This document shows, piece by piece, positions 1-49,282 of a stretch of DNA of 64,000 nt. The notes below the pieces were generated by a model. That model did not search any database. It worked only from the letters and a program-made list of their open reading frames with translations, and was not told where the DNA came from. Made by a program: the position numbers and the translations under genes. How positions within the stretch are numbered: the first letter of the stretch is position 1; every line of letters begins with the position of its first letter. Source of the stretch: Clostridia bacterium (GTDB taxonomy: Bacteria; Bacillota; Clostridia; Oscillospirales; Acutalibacteraceae); assembly GCA_017550105.1 (NCBI GenBank), contig JAFYLQ010000001.1:34566-98565 (forward strand), given 5' to 3'.

Positions 1-95
1 AACTTCACTTTTATTTTCAAATAAAAACTTCACTATGCTTTAGCAAAACTTCACTTTTTGTGCAACAAAAAACTTCACTTTCTTTCGGGCAGGGC
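1..95. repeat. Word-hairpin half-array: AACTTCACT x4 (1-9, 26-34, 47-55, 71-79) separated by short hairpins; truncated by the window edge
   Basis: Read directly from the sequence. Positions 48-79 recur at 49136-49167 with 1 mismatch. Confidence 0.7.
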
Positions 96-146
96 AAGTC
101 ACAGCCCCTACGGTGGGGGCATCGTACTTTCATATATCACAAAAGA

Positions 147-18396: not shown

Positions 18397-18450
18397 AGTT
18401 GGTCCTCCGATAGAGATTTTTTGTGTCTTTATATCTAAAAGAGTGATGTT

Positions 18451-18519
18451 TAAAATCACTTGCGAAGCAAACATCACTGCTTGCAACATCACTACGAAGT
18501 AACATCACTTGACGTAAGG
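18451..18519. repeat. 69-bp perfect direct repeat, left copy (forward-word half-array AACATCACT)
   Basis: Identical to 18988..19056. Contains the GCGAAGC mini-hairpin. Confidence 0.9.
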
Positions 18520-18533
18520 GAAACATCACAATT

Positions 18534-18887
18534 TTAATTATTCTTCTTAGCAGTGGTTATGCTTTTTACGAGCATACGATGAATAACTCCGCAATCCTGC
18601 AATATAGAATCTTTAGTTTTCTCATCAATACAACTAACTCCAAACAGAATATCAATCCAATATTCCGTTTCTACACACTCTTTAAGTGCAATTTGCATTT
18701 TGTTTATAAAATCGGCTTTACTGGCGCCATAATTAGCTTCATATATATTGGCACCAATAGATGTTGCGCTCTTGGTTATCTGATTTATTAAAACTCCACG
18801 TCCTTTTCGTGAGTCTATGTTATCGCACATTTCTATCACATCAATTGCAAATTTTCTTGATCTCGTCCTGAGTTCAGATTCTTTCAT
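18534..18887 (-). CDS. Four-helix-bundle protein (PF05635 / TIGR02436; 23S rRNA intervening-sequence protein / Avd-like family)
   Basis: 117 aa with the family pattern SIGANIYEA...ADFINKMQIALKECVETEYW. RBS AAGGAG. Confidence 0.85.
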   Translation of the reverse strand: MKESELRTRSRKFAIDVIEMCDNIDSRKGRGVLINQITKSATSIGANIYEANYGASKADFINKMQIALKECVETEYWIDILFGVSCIDEKTKDSILQDCGVIHRMLVKSITTAKKNN

Positions 18888-18899
18888 AATTACACTCCT

Positions 18900-19056
18900 T
18901 TGTGATGTTGTGCTGAAGCACAGTGAAGTTATGCTAAGGCATAGTGATGTTTTTATCCACGGATAAAAGTGATGTTAAGTTTGCCCTTAAAATCACTTGC
19001 GAAGCAAACATCACTGCTTGCAACATCACTACGAAGTAACATCACTTGACGTAAGG
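18900..19056. repeat. Mirrored word-hairpin array: 4 reverse words (AGTGATGTT-like), then 4 forward words (AACATCACT-like), each separated by a mini-hairpin
   Basis: Reverse words at 18901, 18922, 18943 and 18968; forward words at 18989, 19007, 19022 and 19038. Includes the right copy of the 69-bp repeat (18988..19056). Confidence 0.85.
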
Positions 19057-19065
19057 CAAACTTAG

Positions 19066-20823
19066 TTATATTCTATACATCGTATACATATTAGCATAAA
19101 TGCCGTTTTTCTGTGTCAATTCCTCGTGGGTGCCGCTTTCGGCAATGCCGTCCTTGGTAATTACAAGAATTTTATCTGCATTTTTAATAGTCGTAAGTCT
19201 GTGGGCAACGGTGATGGTTGTTCTGCCCTGTGCAAGGCGTTCAAGGGATTGCTGAACAAGGAACTCGCTTTCGTTATCAAGGGCGCTTGTAGCCTCGTCA
19301 AGTATAAGTATTTTCGGGTTTTTAAGGAATACTCTTGCAATACTGATTCGTTGCTTCTGACCGCCCGAAAGCTTAACACCTCGTTCGCCGACGTAGGTGT
19401 CAAAGCCGTTGGGAAGATTATCAATAAAATCCTCTGCACCTGCAAGACGAGCCGCCTGACGGATTTCCTCTTCAGTAGCACCGGGCTTACCGTATTCAAT
19501 ATTTTCCCTTACCGTGCCCGAGAAAAGGTAAACGTCCTGTTGCACAACGCCGATATTTTCACGAAGTGATTTAAGCGTTACGTCACGTATATCGGTGCCG
19601 TCAATTTTTATGCTTCCTTCGGTGATTTCATAAAAACGGGGAATAAGGTTGCAAATTGTGGTTTTACCGCCACCCGAGGGTCCCACAAGGGCAAAGCTTT
19701 CGCCGCTACCGATGTTAAGATTTATGCGGTTTAAAATTTCCTCGGTATCATCAGAATATTTAAAGGTTACGTTGTCAAAATCAATTCTGCCCTCGGTAAC
19801 CTCAAGGGGAACGGCATTTTTCTTGTCCTTAATATCGGGGTCGATATCCATAATATCCGCAAAACGCTCAATACCCGTCATACCACGCTGGAACTGTTCA
19901 ACAAAGTCCACAAGCTTTCTGATTGCGGTAAGGAGCATTGCCGCATACATAAGGTATGCAACGTAGTCGGGGGCAGAAATTCTTTCGTTAAGAATGAAAA
20001 ATGCACCGATTACTGCCACAACAATGTACATTATGCCCTCAAAAACTCTGTTTACAGAGCTGTATGAGCCCATAAATTTGTACATTACCGCTTTAATATC
20101 GAGGAACTTTTCGTTTCCGTGCTTGAATTTATTTTCCTCTATATTTTCATTGGCAAAGGATTTAACAACCCTTACACCCAGAAGGCTGTCTTCAATCTGT
20201 GCGTTTAATTCACCAAGTGTCACACGGCTTTCGCGCATACTGTCCTTCATTCGTGTTTTAAAATATTTAAGACACACAGCCATTAAGGGGATAACTGCGA
20301 ACATTATAAGCGTAAGGAAAATATCCATTCTTGCAAGGATTATGAAGGATACAACAATTTTAACTCCCGCTATAAAGAATTCCTCAGGGCAATGGTGTGC
20401 AAACTCCGTAACGTCAAAAAGGTCACTTGTAAAGCGGGACATTATTGTGCCCACCTTGGTTTCGTCGTAGTAGGAGTAGGGTAGCTTGTGAAGATGCTCG
20501 AACATATCACGGCGCATATCCGTTTCCATCTTGGTGCCCATAATGTGACCCACCGACGCCATATAATAGTTGGCAATAGCATCAATTATACGTAAGGCGA
20601 TGTAAATACCGCCCATTGTCAGTATGGTTCTTGCAGTAAGCAAAGCGATGTTTTCAATCGCCGTGTCCGTAATGTGGCGGACAAAAAGAGGCAAAATCAA
20701 TTCGCATATTGTGGTTAATGCCGCACAGAAAAGGTCAAGAAACAACGTTTTAACGTGGGGCTTATAGTAGGGTAAAAATCGCTTAATTAACTTAGCGTTG
20801 CCTGATTTGTTTTTGTTTTTCAT
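19066..20823 (-). CDS. ABC transporter, fused permease/ATP-binding protein (MsbA-like exporter)
   Basis: 585 aa. Walker A GPSGGGKTT, signature LSGGQKQR, Walker B LILDEATS. Confidence 0.9.
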   Translation of the reverse strand: MKNKNKSGNAKLIKRFLPYYKPHVKTLFLDLFCAALTTICELILPLFVRHITDTAIENIALLTARTILTMGGIYIALRIIDAIANYYMASVGHIMGTKMETDMRRDMFEHLHKLPYSYYDETKVGTIMSRFTSDLFDVTEFAHHCPEEFFIAGVKIVVSFIILARMDIFLTLIMFAVIPLMAVCLKYFKTRMKDSMRESRVTLGELNAQIEDSLLGVRVVKSFANENIEENKFKHGNEKFLDIKAVMYKFMGSYSSVNRVFEGIMYIVVAVIGAFFILNERISAPDYVAYLMYAAMLLTAIRKLVDFVEQFQRGMTGIERFADIMDIDPDIKDKKNAVPLEVTEGRIDFDNVTFKYSDDTEEILNRINLNIGSGESFALVGPSGGGKTTICNLIPRFYEITEGSIKIDGTDIRDVTLKSLRENIGVVQQDVYLFSGTVRENIEYGKPGATEEEIRQAARLAGAEDFIDNLPNGFDTYVGERGVKLSGGQKQRISIARVFLKNPKILILDEATSALDNESEFLVQQSLERLAQGRTTITVAHRLTTIKNADKILVITKDGIAESGTHEELTQKNGIYANMYTMYRI

Positions 20824-20968
20824 ATTAACTCCTAAAGAACAAACTTATACAAATATATGTTATCACAAAATACAAATCTGTTCAATAAACTTATTATATA
20901 TTACACAATTGATTTGACTTTTTTTGAGTGCTATAATTAAGAAAAATCAAAGAATAACAGGTGGTTTT

Positions 20969-22204
20969 ATGAAAATTATAAAAATCGGTATATTCGGTGC
21001 AGGCCGCGGTGGCACGTTTATTGATAATATCGTCAATAACCACGGCGAGGTTGTTGCCCTTTGCGACAAAAGGGTTGAAGCAATGGAGGAAGTTGCGGCG
21101 GAAATGGAAAATAAACCCGCTATGTATACGGATTTTGAGGAATTCTTAAACCACGATATGGATGCGGTTTTTCTTGCAAATTACTTCCACGAGCACGCCG
21201 GATACGCCATTCGTTGCCTTGAAAAGGACCTGAACGTTATTTCGGAATGTGTCAGCAACGGCACTATGGCAGAGGGCGTAGCGTTAGTAAGAGCCGCAAA
21301 AAAGAGCAAGGGCATTTATATGCTTTCGGAAAATTACCCCTATATGATTTTTAATCAGGAAATGCGAAGGGTTTACGAAAGCGGTGCTTTGGGCAAGGTG
21401 CTTTTTGCCGAGGGCGAGTACAATCACCCGTTTAATCTTGACGATTTGGAATACCACAGACCCTTACGTCCCCATCCCGACCATTGGCGTAATTTCCTGC
21501 CCCGTTCATATTATATTACCCACTCGTTGGCACCCCTTATGTATATTACGGGCTCTTTCCCCGTAAGGGTTTCGGCAATGCCTGTTTTTGAGCCCTTTAA
21601 TGAATACAAGCACGTGGGCTCGGTAGTGGGTGACAGAGCAACAATTATCACCTGCCTTAACGACGATAATTCCGTTTTCCGTGTAACGGGCTGTGCCGCC
21701 TTCGGTGCTCACGAAAACTCATACCGAGTGTGTGGCACCAAGGGTCAGATTGAAAACTTAAGAGGTATGGGCGACAAGGTGATGCTACGCTTCAACGATT
21801 GGGAAAAGCCCGAGGGCTACGAGAACGACAACCTTTACGAGCCCCAATGGAGCCTTGAGGATAAAGAACTTGCGGAAAAAGCAGGGCACGGCGGCGGTGA
21901 TTTCTTTGTAATTAAAGAATTTTTTGACTGCATCCGTGAAAACAGGAGACCTCAGTTTGACGAGCATTTTGCAACAATCTGCTCATCCGTTGCAATTTTA
22001 AGTCACCGCAGTGCATTAGAAAAGGGTATACCTTACGATATACCCGATTTTCGCAATGAAGAGGATTGCGTTAAATATGAAAATGATTTCAGCACACCCA
22101 TTCCGGGTAGTGACGGCAAAAAGCCCGATATGCCCTGTTGCTCACATCCTGATTATAAGCCGAGTTCTGAGCAATTTGAAGCGTATCTTGAAATGTTAAA
22201 GTAA
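20969..22204 (+). CDS. Gfo/Idh/MocA family oxidoreductase
   Basis: N-terminal Rossmann motif IGIFGAGRGG. The ATG at 20969 follows AGGTGG. Confidence 0.8.
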   Translation: MKIIKIGIFGAGRGGTFIDNIVNNHGEVVALCDKRVEAMEEVAAEMENKPAMYTDFEEFLNHDMDAVFLANYFHEHAGYAIRCLEKDLNVISECVSNGTMAEGVALVRAAKKSKGIYMLSENYPYMIFNQEMRRVYESGALGKVLFAEGEYNHPFNLDDLEYHRPLRPHPDHWRNFLPRSYYITHSLAPLMYITGSFPVRVSAMPVFEPFNEYKHVGSVVGDRATIITCLNDDNSVFRVTGCAAFGAHENSYRVCGTKGQIENLRGMGDKVMLRFNDWEKPEGYENDNLYEPQWSLEDKELAEKAGHGGGDFFVIKEFFDCIRENRRPQFDEHFATICSSVAILSHRSALEKGIPYDIPDFRNEEDCVKYENDFSTPIPGSDGKKPDMPCCSHPDYKPSSEQFEAYLEMLK

Positions 22205-22795
22205 ATGACTTGTGTCATTAAGGAATTTTAATTTGGTTTTAATAACACCGTCTTCCTTAAGGTAATTGACTAAGGTAACCCCCGTGTTAAGATGTGAAAA
22301 ATTAAAGTTCTCTTTAAAGGGAAAGTCGAGAGCCGCAAGGACCAAATAGGAGTTAAAGGTGCCGTGTGCCACAAGCACAATTGTTGAACCAAAATCGTTT
22401 TCTGATTTGATTTTATTGATGACGCTTTTTGCACGATTGTAAGCAATTTCATCATTTTCAAACCCCAAAGCTTTACGGGGAAGTATAGTGGCATCGGGAA
22501 TGACCTTAAGTAAATCAGTGTCGGGCAAGCCCGTGTATTCAGGGTCAGTTCCCTTTTCAAGAAGTGAACAGTCAATTATAACGGGCACGTCCTTATGGTG
22601 ATTTTTAATTGCCCCTGCGGTTTTCACCGCTCTTATAAGAGGACTTGTGTAGATTTTATCTATTTTTTCATTTTTAAATCTTGCGCCTAAAAGGTCAGCC
22701 TGATTTTCACCGTTGGGCGTAAGGTCGGTTTCCGTAAAGCCGTCACCGTTTAAATTGCCGTAGGTTTCGCCGTGGCGGACAATATAAATAAACAT
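22196..22795 (-). CDS. Histidine phosphatase family protein
   Basis: 199 aa with the N-terminal RHGET motif. Confidence 0.8.
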   Translation of the reverse strand: MFIYIVRHGETYGNLNGDGFTETDLTPNGENQADLLGARFKNEKIDKIYTSPLIRAVKTAGAIKNHHKDVPVIIDCSLLEKGTDPEYTGLPDTDLLKVIPDATILPRKALGFENDEIAYNRAKSVINKIKSENDFGSTIVLVAHGTFNSYLVLAALDFPFKENFNFSHLNTGVTLVNYLKEDGVIKTKLKFLNDTSHLL

Positions 22796-22810
22796 TAGTT
22801 ATCACCTCTG

Positions 22811-22997
22811 AAATCTTATTTTGCGAAAGCAAAATATATCGAGCCGACAGGTATATCGAGTCGCTTGCGACATATCGAACGCGTAAGCGTATATCGACAG
22901 TCGATATGTTTATCTTTCGATAAACTCGATATATTGCAGAGCAATTCGATATATTTTCACTTCGTTCAAATTCGATATGTTGTGCTTTGCACAACGA
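22811..22997. repeat. Mirrored word-hairpin array: 4 forward ATATCGA words, then 5 reverse TCGATAT-like words, separated by GC-closed mini-hairpins
   Basis: Forward words at 22836, 22853, 22872 and 22891; reverse words at 22901, 22917, 22927, 22946 and 22972. Confidence 0.85.
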
Positions 22998-23009
22998 GTA
23001 TGTAAACAA

Positions 23010-23357
23010 TTAGTTGTTGTTTTTTGCCGTAGTGATTGATGCAATAAGTCGACGTCTTATTGAGCCCGCAAACTTTTTTGTTTCAAAATACTCTTTTTCA
23101 GAAATGGCCTTTTTTCTGAAAATCAACTCAATCCAGTACTCTGTTTCAGCAACCTCTTTCAAAGCGATTTCGAGTTTGTTTATGAAATCGGCACGGCTTT
23201 GTGCGTATTTTGCTTCGTGAATATTGGCGCCGATAGAAGATGAGGAGCGGATAAGTTGATTTTTGTACACAGAGCAACCTTGTATGTTTTCGCACATATC
23301 AGAAATCGTAATGGCGAAAGATATAGAATCCTCACGTAATATGTTTTTATTACCCAT
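23010..23357 (-). CDS. Four-helix-bundle protein (PF05635 / TIGR02436 family), paralogue of 18534..18887
   Basis: 115 aa with SIGANIHEA...ADFINKLEIALKEVAETEYW. RBS AAGGAG. Confidence 0.85.
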   Translation of the reverse strand: MGNKNILREDSISFAITISDMCENIQGCSVYKNQLIRSSSSIGANIHEAKYAQSRADFINKLEIALKEVAETEYWIELIFRKKAISEKEYFETKKFAGSIRRRLIASITTAKNNN

Positions 23358-23372
23358 ATTGTTTCTCCTTAT

Positions 23373-23440
23373 AAATCTTATTTTGCGAAAGCAAAATATA
23401 TCGAGCCGACAGGTATATCGACAGTCGATATGTTTATCTT
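23373..23440. repeat. Short copy of the ATATCGA array
   Basis: 23373..23421 is identical to 22811..22859, and 23422..23440 is identical to 22898..22916. This is the left array with 38 bp deleted between two words. Confidence 0.9.
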
Positions 23441-23554
23441 AAGTATACACTTGCAAAGATAATTATTCAATGTATTTTAAATGTTTCTTGCATTAACAGA
23501 GGAAAGCGTGTAAAATTATAAAAAAGCAAATATCAATAAAGAGGGAATACTTTT

Positions 23555-48507: not shown

Positions 48508-49282
48508 TAAATGCAAAATGCAGAATGCAAAATTATCGGGGCTAACGCCGAATTATAGATAAAGTAGTTGCAACGCGAAGCCTAACCTCTCTGCGTAAGG
48601 AGAGAGGGGGCAAGGAACACGACCGCCGCCAGTGGCGGATGAAGGGAGTGTGAGTTGGCGTAGCGGTCAAAATTGTGCGAAGTGAACAACGAGCAAACAA
48701 TTTTGGGCACCGCAAGAGGACTTAACATCATTGAAAGTTATAAATAAAAGTTTTAAGCGTGATAGCAAGATTTTGATTAAATAAAGCTTGTCGGATGGTG
48801 GAGAGTCCTGTTCACTTGCTTTTAGCTATCAGTTCGATAGAACAATAAAACCCCGTAGGGTTTAGGCTTGCCTAAACCGCTAAGTTATTGATAAACCAAA
48901 CGGGCTGGGCAAGCCACAGCCCCTACAGTAATTTATTCTTCAGTTCGATAGAACAACCACAAATCCTTGATATTAATTATGCATTACAAATTACTTCGGT
49001 ATATTCTCCGCAAGGAGTTTATATAGTGTAACAGACCCCCTGTTACACAAGCCATATCTTTCTCTTTCACACCCCACATCCACAGCGGAAGGCTCCTGCC
49101 GAAAGGCGGGAGCTTTCTGCTATGGGAGTAGCCCGACTTCACTTTTTGTGTAACAAAAAACTTCACTAAATAATAGTGGTGGGTAGTTCTCTTGCGGTTT
49201 TTCTTCGGTCGGATAGAAAATATCGAAAATAAACCCCATTGTAAATCTAAAACTAAAATGCTATTATAAACACGGTGATTTT
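48508..49282. other. 775-bp ORF-free, hairpin-dense region containing dispersed repeats
   Basis: Many GNRA-type or GC-closed hairpins. CAGTTCGATAGAACAA occurs at about 48829 and 48941. The AACTTCACT words and a 24-mer are shared with positions 86-112. Confidence 0.6.

Follow-up and report, generated by a model that had tools for sequence, protein, structure and literature searches.

Two copies of a PF05635 gene cassette with mirrored word-and-hairpin arrays in a Clostridia genome look like a widespread mobile element related to 23S rRNA intervening sequences

In a 64,000-nt stretch of the Clostridia bacterium contig JAFYLQ010000001.1 (hereafter the window, meaning the whole of the DNA analysed), words of 7-9 nt are repeated in one orientation and then mirrored, and two such arrays adjoin genes of the PF05635 four-helix-bundle family. 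The question raised by this locus is whether the arrays represent, as proposed in an earlier note made from the sequence alone, a possible new class of repeats shaped by selection on structure or by a templated generating mechanism, rather than copies of one mobile element. The observation made in that note was confirmed and its interpretation was partly right. The region is composed of two copies of a small cassette, each with a PF05635 gene and mirrored word arrays, and looks like a widespread mobile element related to the intervening sequences of 23S rRNA.

Three word arrays are present in the window, and each word-to-word interval in them is occupied by its own mini-hairpin, a small palindrome unlike the others. 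The interval hairpins listed in the note were recovered, namely GCGAAGC, GCTTGC, ACGAAGT, CGTAAG, GCTGAAGC, GCTAAGGC, GCGAAAGC, CGCGTAAGCG, GCAGAGC and GCTTTGC. In what follows, A-form designates the word reading AACxTCACT or ATATCGA, and T-form its reverse complement. The genes around the arrays are all encoded on the minus strand. In gene orientation, cassette 1 starts after the stop codon of an ABC-transporter gene with four T-form and four A-form words, followed by a ribosome-binding site and the PF05635 gene, and then by five T-form words, one A-form word and deoD. Cassette 2 begins with one A-form and two T-form words, continues with a ribosome-binding site and the PF05635 gene, and ends with four A-form and four T-form words in front of the ribosome-binding site of a histidine-phosphatase gene. 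The span 18437-23445, to which attention had been drawn, also takes in three ordinary genes located outside the elements (ABC transporter, oxidoreductase and histidine phosphatase). The features of the arrays and cassettes are the following:

1..95, plus strand: orphan half-array, AACTTCACT x4 with three hairpins in a single orientation; the mirrored half lies left of the window start
18437..18533: half-array of cassette 1, 3' of PF05635 gene 1 and 5' of the deoD ribosome-binding site; plus-strand words AGTGATGTT at 18442-18450, then AAAATCACT and AACATCACT x4 at 18453, 18470, 18485, 18501 and 18522
18450-18524: direct-repeat copy a, 75 nt, 99% identical to copy b at 18987-19061
18534..18887, minus strand: PF05635 / TIGR02436 four-helix-bundle gene 1, 117 aa
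18888..18976: ribosome-binding site and gene-proximal half-array of cassette 1, words at 18901-18976; plus-strand words TGTGATGTT, AGTGAAGTT, AGTGATGTT, AGTGATGTT, hairpins GTGCTGAAGCAC, ATGCTAAGGCAT, TTTATCCACGGATAAA
18976..19064: gene-distal half-array of cassette 1, AAAATCACT and AACATCACT x3 at 18990-19046, hairpins GCGAAGC, GCTTGC, ACGAAGT and CGTAAG; closed by the 10-bp bracket TAAGTTTGCC/GGCAAACTTA
22802..22995: full mirrored array of cassette 2, ATATCGA x4 at 22836-22897, CAG, TCGATAT x4 at 22901-22978
22819-22834 and 22979-22995: terminal hairpins of the full cassette-2 array
23010..23357, minus strand: PF05635 gene 2, 115 aa
23364..23440: short copy of the cassette-2 array, hairpin, ATATCGA x2, CAG, TCGATAT x1, words at 23398-23431
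23442..23470, minus strand: promoter-like site TTGAAT, 17 nt, TATACT, just 5' of the short array; a consensus match only, not enriched over shuffles

The full array of cassette 2 lies between gene 2 and the start of the histidine-phosphatase gene, with its halves in reversed order compared to the usual layout (see below). The short copy, which equals the long one minus two word-plus-hairpin units, makes up the 5' leader of gene 2, and the direct repeats of this cassette measure 58 nt (93% identity) and 28 nt (100%). In both cassettes, inverted words enclose the open reading frame (ORF) of the PF05635 gene, with AACATCAC at 18453-18529 facing the reverse-complement words at 18901-18976 in cassette 1, and 22901-22978 facing 23398-23421 in cassette 2. 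The motif AACWTCAC has 20 matches in the window for 4.4 expected, 16 of them within arrays, and ATATCGA has 17 for 5.8 expected, 11 of them within cassette 2. The arrays fold far better than shuffles (z -4.2 to -6.0, the RNA fold of the full cassette-2 array reaching -6.0), and the bracket stem of cassette 1 is part of the fold with the lowest predicted energy (z -2.6 to -3.0).

Recurrence was assessed in 80 loci retrieved with a profile of relatives in a scan where each species was represented by one genome; nearly all come from metagenome-assembled genomes of ruminant or human gut Clostridia, and loci are given below by their L numbers. In at least 65 of the 80, a mirrored array occurs immediately 5' of the PF05635 gene, most often in the order T-form words, A-form words and gene, with a modal count of four words per half and a word spacing of 16-29 nt that follows no helical phase. 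The contrast drawn earlier between a conserved layout and a variable sequence extends to this whole set, in which at least 10 word classes (including AACTTCACT, ATTTCAC, CAATTCAT, ATATCGC, ATATCGA, ATATCACT and ATAACACT) and 351 distinct interval sequences were counted. Word and protein co-diverge: identity of the PF05635 proteins is 0.80 within a word class versus 0.54 between classes, and in 61 of 67 cases the word is shared with the closest protein neighbour. The remaining six cases concern word classes of one or two members, and in five of them the word of the neighbour differs by a single base.

Arrays are variously placed relative to expression signals. The ribosome-binding site comes directly after the last word in the window as well as in the AACTTCACT class, and many arrays have no adjacent promoter. 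In the ATTTCAC class, the array is located between a T-run terminator and a TTGAAA-17-TATAAT promoter starting at the last word, and hence lies outside the mRNA of the gene. The earlier description of these sites as mRNA leaders therefore holds for some loci and fails for the ATTTCAC class.

Other features were detected at the same loci. Arrays of the ATTTCAC and ATATCAT classes occur directly 3' of a tRNA gene and its terminator in L023, L035, L048, L076 and L077, as well as in the viral contigs L209, L211 and L212. A second mirrored hairpin array, with the word TCATTTG/CAAATGA, was found 0.4-0.7 kb 3' of the PF05635 gene in L023 (3732-3892), L035 (3844-3964) and L048 (4052-4219); the one in L048 precedes a promoter and a gene for a 465-aa membrane protein that does not belong to PF05635.

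The cassettes and their gene-less derivatives have moved into intergenic sites. The preference expressed earlier for a structural explanation over copies of a mobile element is not supported, as array 1-95 and the cassette-1 array, which have the same hairpin order, are paralogues, as the orthologous site is empty or differently filled in relatives, and as the 75-nt direct repeat is a product of gene conversion. When orthologous ABC transporter/deoD junctions were compared, with deoD identity expressed relative to the window, the following situations were found:

L221: deoD 88%, 14 nt, empty
L219: deoD 90%, 122 nt, four heptamers, a 45-nt loop and four inverted heptamers, no ORF
L220: deoD 90%, 245 nt, element of the L219 kind, no ORF
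L218: deoD 94%, 617 nt, heptamer element as in L220 plus a nested insertion
Window and sister strains: deoD 100% (window), ca. 670 nt, PF05635 cassette

In L218, the nested insertion contains an array of ATGTAATC words spaced by hairpins, and it is bordered by a direct duplication, 44-45 nt long, of a sequence that is single-copy in L220. No PF05635 remnants were found in the ORF-less elements of L218-L220. Across loci, the layouts of arrays and gene differ by circular permutation (half-half-gene, half-gene-half or gene central), the order being A-half, gene and T-half in L009, while the gene sits in the centre of the array in L027, L075 and cassette 2. In L074, a perfect 108-nt repeat spans a -10 box and the T-half.

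Word-plus-hairpin units are also gained, lost and exchanged between copies. In a sister strain whose PF05635 protein is 99% identical, GTGATGT words are retained in the downstream half-array; upstream, the words are GTGAAGT/ACTTCAC, with GCA loops where the window has GAA, and the words of this upstream array have changed together in both halves. Since the sister-strain copies differ in words and loops, the 99% identity of the 75-nt repeat in the window is attributed to gene conversion, and its candidacy as an insertion footprint was rejected.

Because whole hairpins swap between copies, alignment columns are not homologous, and hairpin statistics were thus computed at the level of the 351 distinct intervals instead of by counting pairs in an alignment. 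Perfect stems of 4 bp or more are present in 56% of the intervals versus 9% of shuffles, and those of 5 bp or more in 34% versus 1.8%. Stems are ca. 98% Watson-Crick, with 21 G.T for 22 A.C mismatches and hence no G-U excess, and about half of the tetraloops are not of the GNRA type (GTTA, GACA, GTCA). In structured RNAs, G-U pairs are usually present and GNRA loops are preferred. The earlier remark that these loops recall DNA mini-hairpins was borne out, as the A-form strand contains 67 cGNAg loops (versus 8 TNC) and 47 cGNNAg loops (versus 6 TNNC), almost always closed by C-G and seen in both halves, which means on opposite DNA strands. Tandem G.A pairs beside the hairpin were recorded in 28 cases, in the gene-proximal half and on the A-form strand only.

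The sequences d(GCGAAGC), d(cGNAg), d(cGNNAg) and d(gCNNGc) form exceptionally stable DNA mini-hairpins, as reported by Hirao, by Yoshizawa, and by Nakano and Bevilacqua. The likeness resides in the C-G closure with GNA or GNNA loops that dominates on one strand, and in the presence of GCGAAGC, GCGAAAGC and GCTTGC in the window; those hairpins are thermodynamic motifs and not a genetic element, and the ones described here are predicted. Selection for pairing of words across the two halves was considered and rejected, compensation in the partner amounting to 7% versus 6% in a non-partner control. As deviant bases are not compensated in the pairing partner, the words are kept as sequences and not as a stem.

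The half-array itself proved to be a catalogued orphan motif, Gut-1 (Rfam RF01706), and in this respect the idea of a new repeat class was not supported. The Gut-1 model matches the gene-distal half-array at 52-70 bits in L076, L048, L035, L023 and L001, and in L048 the other half is also matched, on the opposite strand. Among 20 scanned loci, it picked up the GUGAAAU class only, plus the GUGAAGU class marginally. The window copies fall far below the Gut-1 gathering threshold of 50 bits (19003-19068, minus strand, 20.6 bits; 18448-18510, minus strand, 16.6 bits); with four words and three or four hairpins, the half-array at 18990-19058 fits the Gut-1 layout, which consists of three short hairpins and a repeated 7-8 nt word. 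The text published by Weinberg et al. in 2010 says only that Gut-1, an orphan motif of unknown function, was found in human-gut sequences, and the motif was accepted into Rfam with covariation (PMC2864571). Three short hairpins with a repeated GUGAAAU word between them and the gut metagenome origin are points in common. In contrast, the window uses other words, the single sentence devoted to Gut-1 names no gene, mirrored partner, word variants or mobility, and the loops counted here favour the strand complementary to that modelled in Rfam. No description was found in the searchable literature of the mirrored layout, of clade-specific words co-diverging with the protein or of a link with PF05635, nor of a kinship with the inverted arrays of some four contiguous heptamers that flank PF05635 genes. 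The window arrays are word variants of Gut-1 in a newly recognised context and not a wholly new class.

The two cassette genes encode proteins that are 52% identical to each other and that match PF05635 with 82.1 and 70.6 bits (cut-off 33.8) and TIGR02436 with 94 and 80 bits (cut-off 24). PF05635 is the S23p or "four helix bundle" family, and its solved relatives are homopentameric rings: PDB entry 2RLD, which matches the product of gene 1 (E 1e-21), and the related 2GSC each have five chains, and the relative XCC0516 is reported as a homopentamer. Avd was not recovered by sequence search. The immediate neighbours of the cassettes code for an ABC transporter, a nucleoside phosphorylase, an oxidoreductase, a histidine phosphatase and a NUDIX protein, and no reverse transcriptase, integrase, recombinase or HUH gene was found among them, a result that concerns these neighbours only. 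A role in anti-phage defence was rejected, PADLOC having given no match; PF05635 genes have previously been noted within cas operons (PMC3936711). In the protein search, many close PF05635 homologues were located on contigs of ca. 1.0-1.2 kb, suggesting that the flanking repeats of the elements probably break short-read metagenome assemblies.

A parallel with the ORF-bearing intervening sequences of 23S rRNA, already drawn in the earlier note, was substantiated. The gene family is the same and, in Coxiella, the intervening sequence carries at its 5' end three tandem GACAGAT heptamers and a degenerate fourth, the number of which varies between strains, while its termini form a 28-bp stem cut by RNase III (PMC4990558). 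Intervening sequences of this kind, found in Coxiella and Leptospira, resemble the cassettes in having a PF05635/S23p ORF and inverted-repeat termini and are regarded as selfish (PMC4990558). They differ in that the sites described here are intergenic or in operons, with words separated by hairpins and, mostly, both halves 5' of the ORF. No rRNA was detected in an Rfam scan of the whole window and the flanking genes are protein-coding, whereas intervening sequences are inserted in helix 25 or 45 of a 23S rRNA gene. Inverted repeated words were further found to flank all of eight distant PF05635 genes that were compared, each carried by a plasmid, with tandem heptamers in six of them (Cyanobacteria):

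L216 (Nostoc): (CGCAATT) x4 upstream, (AATTGCG) x4 downstream
L217 (Nostoc) and L224 (Aulosira): heptamers x4 upstream (ATTCAAA / AATTCAA), inverted heptamers x4-5 downstream (TTTGAAT / TTGAATT)
L222 (Euhalothece): ACCAGTG upstream, CACTGGT downstream
L223 (Nostoc): TCGCAAG upstream, CTTGCGA downstream
L225 (Planktothrix): GTAAATC upstream, GATTTAC downstream, with one more direct copy ahead of the next gene
L215 (Treponema saccharophilum pTS1): long (GAAAGNG)n, some 40 tandem heptamers, then (CNCTCTC)n upstream; (CNCTCTC)n downstream, a direct copy
L214 (Monoglobus): TAATTAGGAATGAG x2 upstream, a word longer than a heptamer, and its reverse complement x2 downstream; gene between hsdS and hsdR

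The clostridial arrays therefore look like the same design to which a hairpin has been added between words. Intergenic tandem heptamers are also known in Cyanobacteria as short tandemly repeated repetitive (STRR) sequences. In Beggiatoaceae, tandem repeats of TAACTGA have been described (PMC4679880). Both kinds share with the arrays the occurrence of short tandem heptamers just 5' of start codons, unexplained and common to several phyla; unlike the arrays, the TAACTGA repeats are without hairpin spacers, and PMC4679880 mentions no four-helix bundle, 23S rRNA or intervening sequences. Repetitive extragenic palindromes and bacterial interspersed mosaic elements with their associated tyrosine transposases (REP/BIME and RAYT), as well as integron attC sites, offer another likeness, namely a small gene with its own class-specific structured repeats, of conserved architecture and variable sequence. 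By analogy with these systems, recognition of single-stranded hairpins would be plausible for the cassettes. Unlike in them, the gene here is neither an HUH transposase nor located beside an integrase, and the anatomy of the repeats is another one.

The explanation that we favour, and to which we give about an even chance, is that the array represents the cis site of a selfish cassette of the intervening-sequence type, read by the PF05635 pentamer on single-stranded nucleic acid. According to this explanation, the array would be the cis-acting site of the cassette and would be read in single-stranded form, each hairpin folding back on itself and so bringing the words next to each other whatever its length. 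A spacing of 16-29 nt without phase fits hairpins acting as spacers that would add no length in single-stranded nucleic acid. The ligand would be the cassette's own PF05635 pentamer, with about one word per protomer, and the hairpins might serve as handles or spacers, as does the stem-loop bound by Avd in the RNA of diversity-generating retroelements (DGRs). Once a half-array is closed by the 10-bp bracket TAAGTTTGCC/GGCAAACTTA, its four words would alternate with hairpins around a multiloop, an arrangement that would match a ring. The relevant strand would be that of the A-form words (AACxTCACT or ATATCGA); since this strand is opposite in the two halves, it points to DNA and not to one transcript. 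Such binding would act in autoregulation, in propagation of the element, or in both.

Such binding has a precedent in the DGR protein Avd, for which a similarity to S23 proteins has been described. In the Avd pentamer, each of the five protomers uses the same residues to contact a stem-loop capped by a tetraloop, and flipped-out bases are lodged in the crevices that separate the protomers (bioRxiv 10.1101/2023.10.23.563531). Like the relatives of the cassette proteins, Avd is a pentameric four-helix-bundle barrel, and the stem-loop that it binds is capped by a UNCG or GNRA tetraloop. In contrast with the Avd system, the window genes have no adjacent reverse transcriptase or template/variable repeat pair, and many short hairpins and repeated words occur instead of one stem-loop of 9-11 bp.

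In favour of this explanation are the recurrence of arrays 5' of PF05635 genes, their match with Gut-1, the repeated words around distant PF05635 genes and in the Coxiella intervening sequence, the mobility seen at the ABC transporter/deoD junction, the unphased spacing and the hairpin potential, the strand-specific loops, the uncompensated word variants, the co-divergence of word and protein, the modal four words per half set beside pentameric relatives, and the Avd precedent. Several observations speak against it. The modal count of four words per half does not equal the five protomers of the pentameric relatives, and the known ligand of Avd is RNA, not DNA. The gene-proximal half of cassette 1 carries the loops TGAA, TAAG and CACG on the "wrong" strand (purine-rich on the T-form). 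The co-divergence of protein and word is equally expected from plain linkage, and most words in the upstream array of the sister strain read ACTTCAC instead of ACATCAC despite a 99% identical protein; as the word changed without a change in the protein, at least this word position is not strictly read. Arrays, moreover, often persist without the gene: one of the three arrays in this genome region is gene-less and, among 17 true arrays found by pattern alone in viral contigs, an intact PF05635 gene adjoins two and a truncated one adjoins three. What the comparisons show is a mobile family of structured repeats linked to a gene, with a hairpin signature specific to one strand and with words that are conserved as sequences and co-diverge with the protein; from these and from the Avd precedent we infer the reading of the array by a pentamer.

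Four other explanations were weighed. The array could be an RNA element, in line with its filing in Rfam, whose mirrored halves pair word to word into a rod with side hairpins, serving as a leader, an insulator or an RNase III site by which the cassette is excised from host transcripts in the manner of the 23S intervening-sequence stem, a proposition that we find unlikely while granting it a real chance of being right. It would account for the acceptance of Gut-1 into Rfam with covariation (PMC2864571), for the strongly favoured RNA folds (z -4.3 and -6.0), for the ribosome-binding site that directly follows the last word in the window and in the AACTTCACT class, and for the inverted halves that flank the ORF of cassette 1 as in an intervening sequence; the joint change of words in both halves between sister strains and the cleavage by RNase III of the heptamer-bearing Coxiella stem (PMC4990558) point in the same direction. 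An RNA element is at odds with stems showing no G-U excess (21 G.T versus 22 A.C), with the predominance of triloops and of non-GNRA GNNA loops, with favoured loops lying on opposite strands in the two halves, with paired word variants that are uncompensated, and with the position of the ATTTCAC-class array between a terminator and the promoter of the gene. In addition, RNase III acts poorly on 9-bp helices that are interrupted by four-way junctions. A loop census that fits DNA-type hairpins would also suit a folded single-stranded DNA recombination site of the attC or IS200/IS605 type, through which a host or unlinked enzyme moves the cassette, with PF05635 as cargo or accessory. Presence or absence at the junction, nested insertions, long direct duplications (44-45 nt in L218 versus L220, 108 nt in L074, 58 and 28 nt in cassette 2), the gain, loss and swapping of word-plus-hairpin units and the circularly permuted layouts all agree with such a site, yet the immediate neighbours are ordinary metabolic genes with no linked recombinase or HUH gene, the 75-nt repeat of the window derives from gene conversion and not from insertion, and duplications of 44-108 nt match no known transposase. 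Overall, we regard this possibility as quite improbable.

Still less credible, in our opinion, is a double-stranded operator or iteron array, whose words would bind a transcription factor, possibly the PF05635 protein itself, controlling the adjacent promoter, with the hairpins as incidental filler. The last word of the ATTTCAC class does abut a near-perfect promoter (TTGAAA-17-TATAAT), and words are conserved as sequences that are uncompensated across halves; the spacing is nevertheless irregular (16-29 nt), many arrays have no adjacent promoter, and filler would not retain hairpin potential over 351 sequences or a strand-specific cGNAg signature. Finally, chance, simple tandem repeats or a CRISPR-like array can be given practically no credence. 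Direct repeats of the same 8-mer are indeed common in metagenomes, where 117 of the 120 stretches returned by a direct-repeat pattern scan were unrelated tandem repeats and only L091 was a true mirrored hairpin array. Such an origin is refuted by the enrichment of words in the window, the z-scores of the folds, the recurrence beside one gene family and the excess of hairpins over shuffles, while CRISPRs, defined by direct repeats of 23-50 nt and unique spacers of similar length, do not correspond to words of 7-9 nt, palindromic intervals of 6-33 nt and a mirrored half.

On a broader scale, PF05635 pentamers and inverted arrays may constitute an unrecognised cross-phylum class of small mobile cassettes with gene-less derivatives, in which tandem words would be read on single-stranded nucleic acid with one word per protomer. 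This class would unite the ORF-bearing 23S intervening sequences, at least part of the cyanobacterial heptamers and Gut-1, and its members would insert as folded DNA, leaving unusually long target duplications of 44-108 nt. This idea is put forward tentatively and is unlikely to hold. The interest of the locus lies in the bridge that it suggests between Gut-1, PF05635 proteins, rRNA intervening sequences and tandem heptamers, together with the DNA-hairpin signature. A single testable frame would cover the nature of the orphan Gut-1 motif, the role of PF05635/S23p outside retroelements and the origin of ORF-bearing rRNA intervening sequences, perhaps also that of intergenic tandem heptamers and, if the hairpins act as DNA, they would offer a natural, genome-wide case of selection for cGNAg mini-hairpins.

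Arrays devoid of a PF05635 gene were found at several places. A complete counterpart of array 1-95 occurs in L087 (5060-5235), where four AGTGAAGTT are followed by AAATCACT and three AACTTCACT, between convergent genes and with no PF05635 gene. Two further features of the window are listed with them:

93..114, plus strand: conserved 22-nt motif GGCAAGTCACAGCCCCTACGGT / GGCAAGYCACAGCCCCTACGGT, flanking the orphan array; also at 48908-48929 and in L218 at 2673-2694 (nested insertion)
48508..49282: ORF-less composite of the contiguous-heptamer type, 775 nt, intergenic, beginning right after the upstream stop codon

No chance occurrences of the 22-nt motif are expected, and it may be a separate small module travelling with the gene-less array and with nested insertions. 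The composite has AATGCAA AATGCAG AATGCAA at its start and AATTATG CATTACA AATTACT near its end, two AACTTCAC words with a hairpin at ca. 49137-49166, and an inner segment of ca. 100 nt with the direct repeat CAGTTCGATAGAACA on either side; as judged by eye, with no alignment run, the composite has long stretches in common with the ABC/deoD elements of L218 and L220. In 4 of the 17 viral-contig arrays (L249, L265, L269 and L273), the last word abuts a putative C-terminal fragment of an IS256-type transposase, MWKRNFNHVEQLFDYG...NAVESINSSFRK, the family being assigned by eye with no Pfam search. A phage origin of the arrays was rejected, since most of those in viral contigs are located at contig ends beside tRNA genes and terminators, like host flanks.

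Gene-less AACTTCAC arrays were also observed in L001 (5423-5578), L008 (1497-1633), L012 (365-618) and L022 (924-1098), where a common leader of ca. 90 nt (caaaagtcagggacaaatgtgagttt...) comes next, ahead of unrelated genes. Unrelated iteron-like arrays were seen in the metagenome contigs L096 (611-700) and L207 (3317-3470), with AACATCACC x4-6 without hairpins and then the inverted pair GTGATGTTaGTGATGTT. Elsewhere in the window, the segment 36226-36486 contains two copies of a unit of ca. 45 nt (aaccgCCCCTGAttttaaa.tttaagac.acaaaac.ttgattta), with an extra CCCCTGA and an inverted TCAGGGG. Finally, a cobalamin riboswitch (RF00174; 33994-34180, minus strand, 56.8 bits) is the sole Rfam family above threshold in the window.

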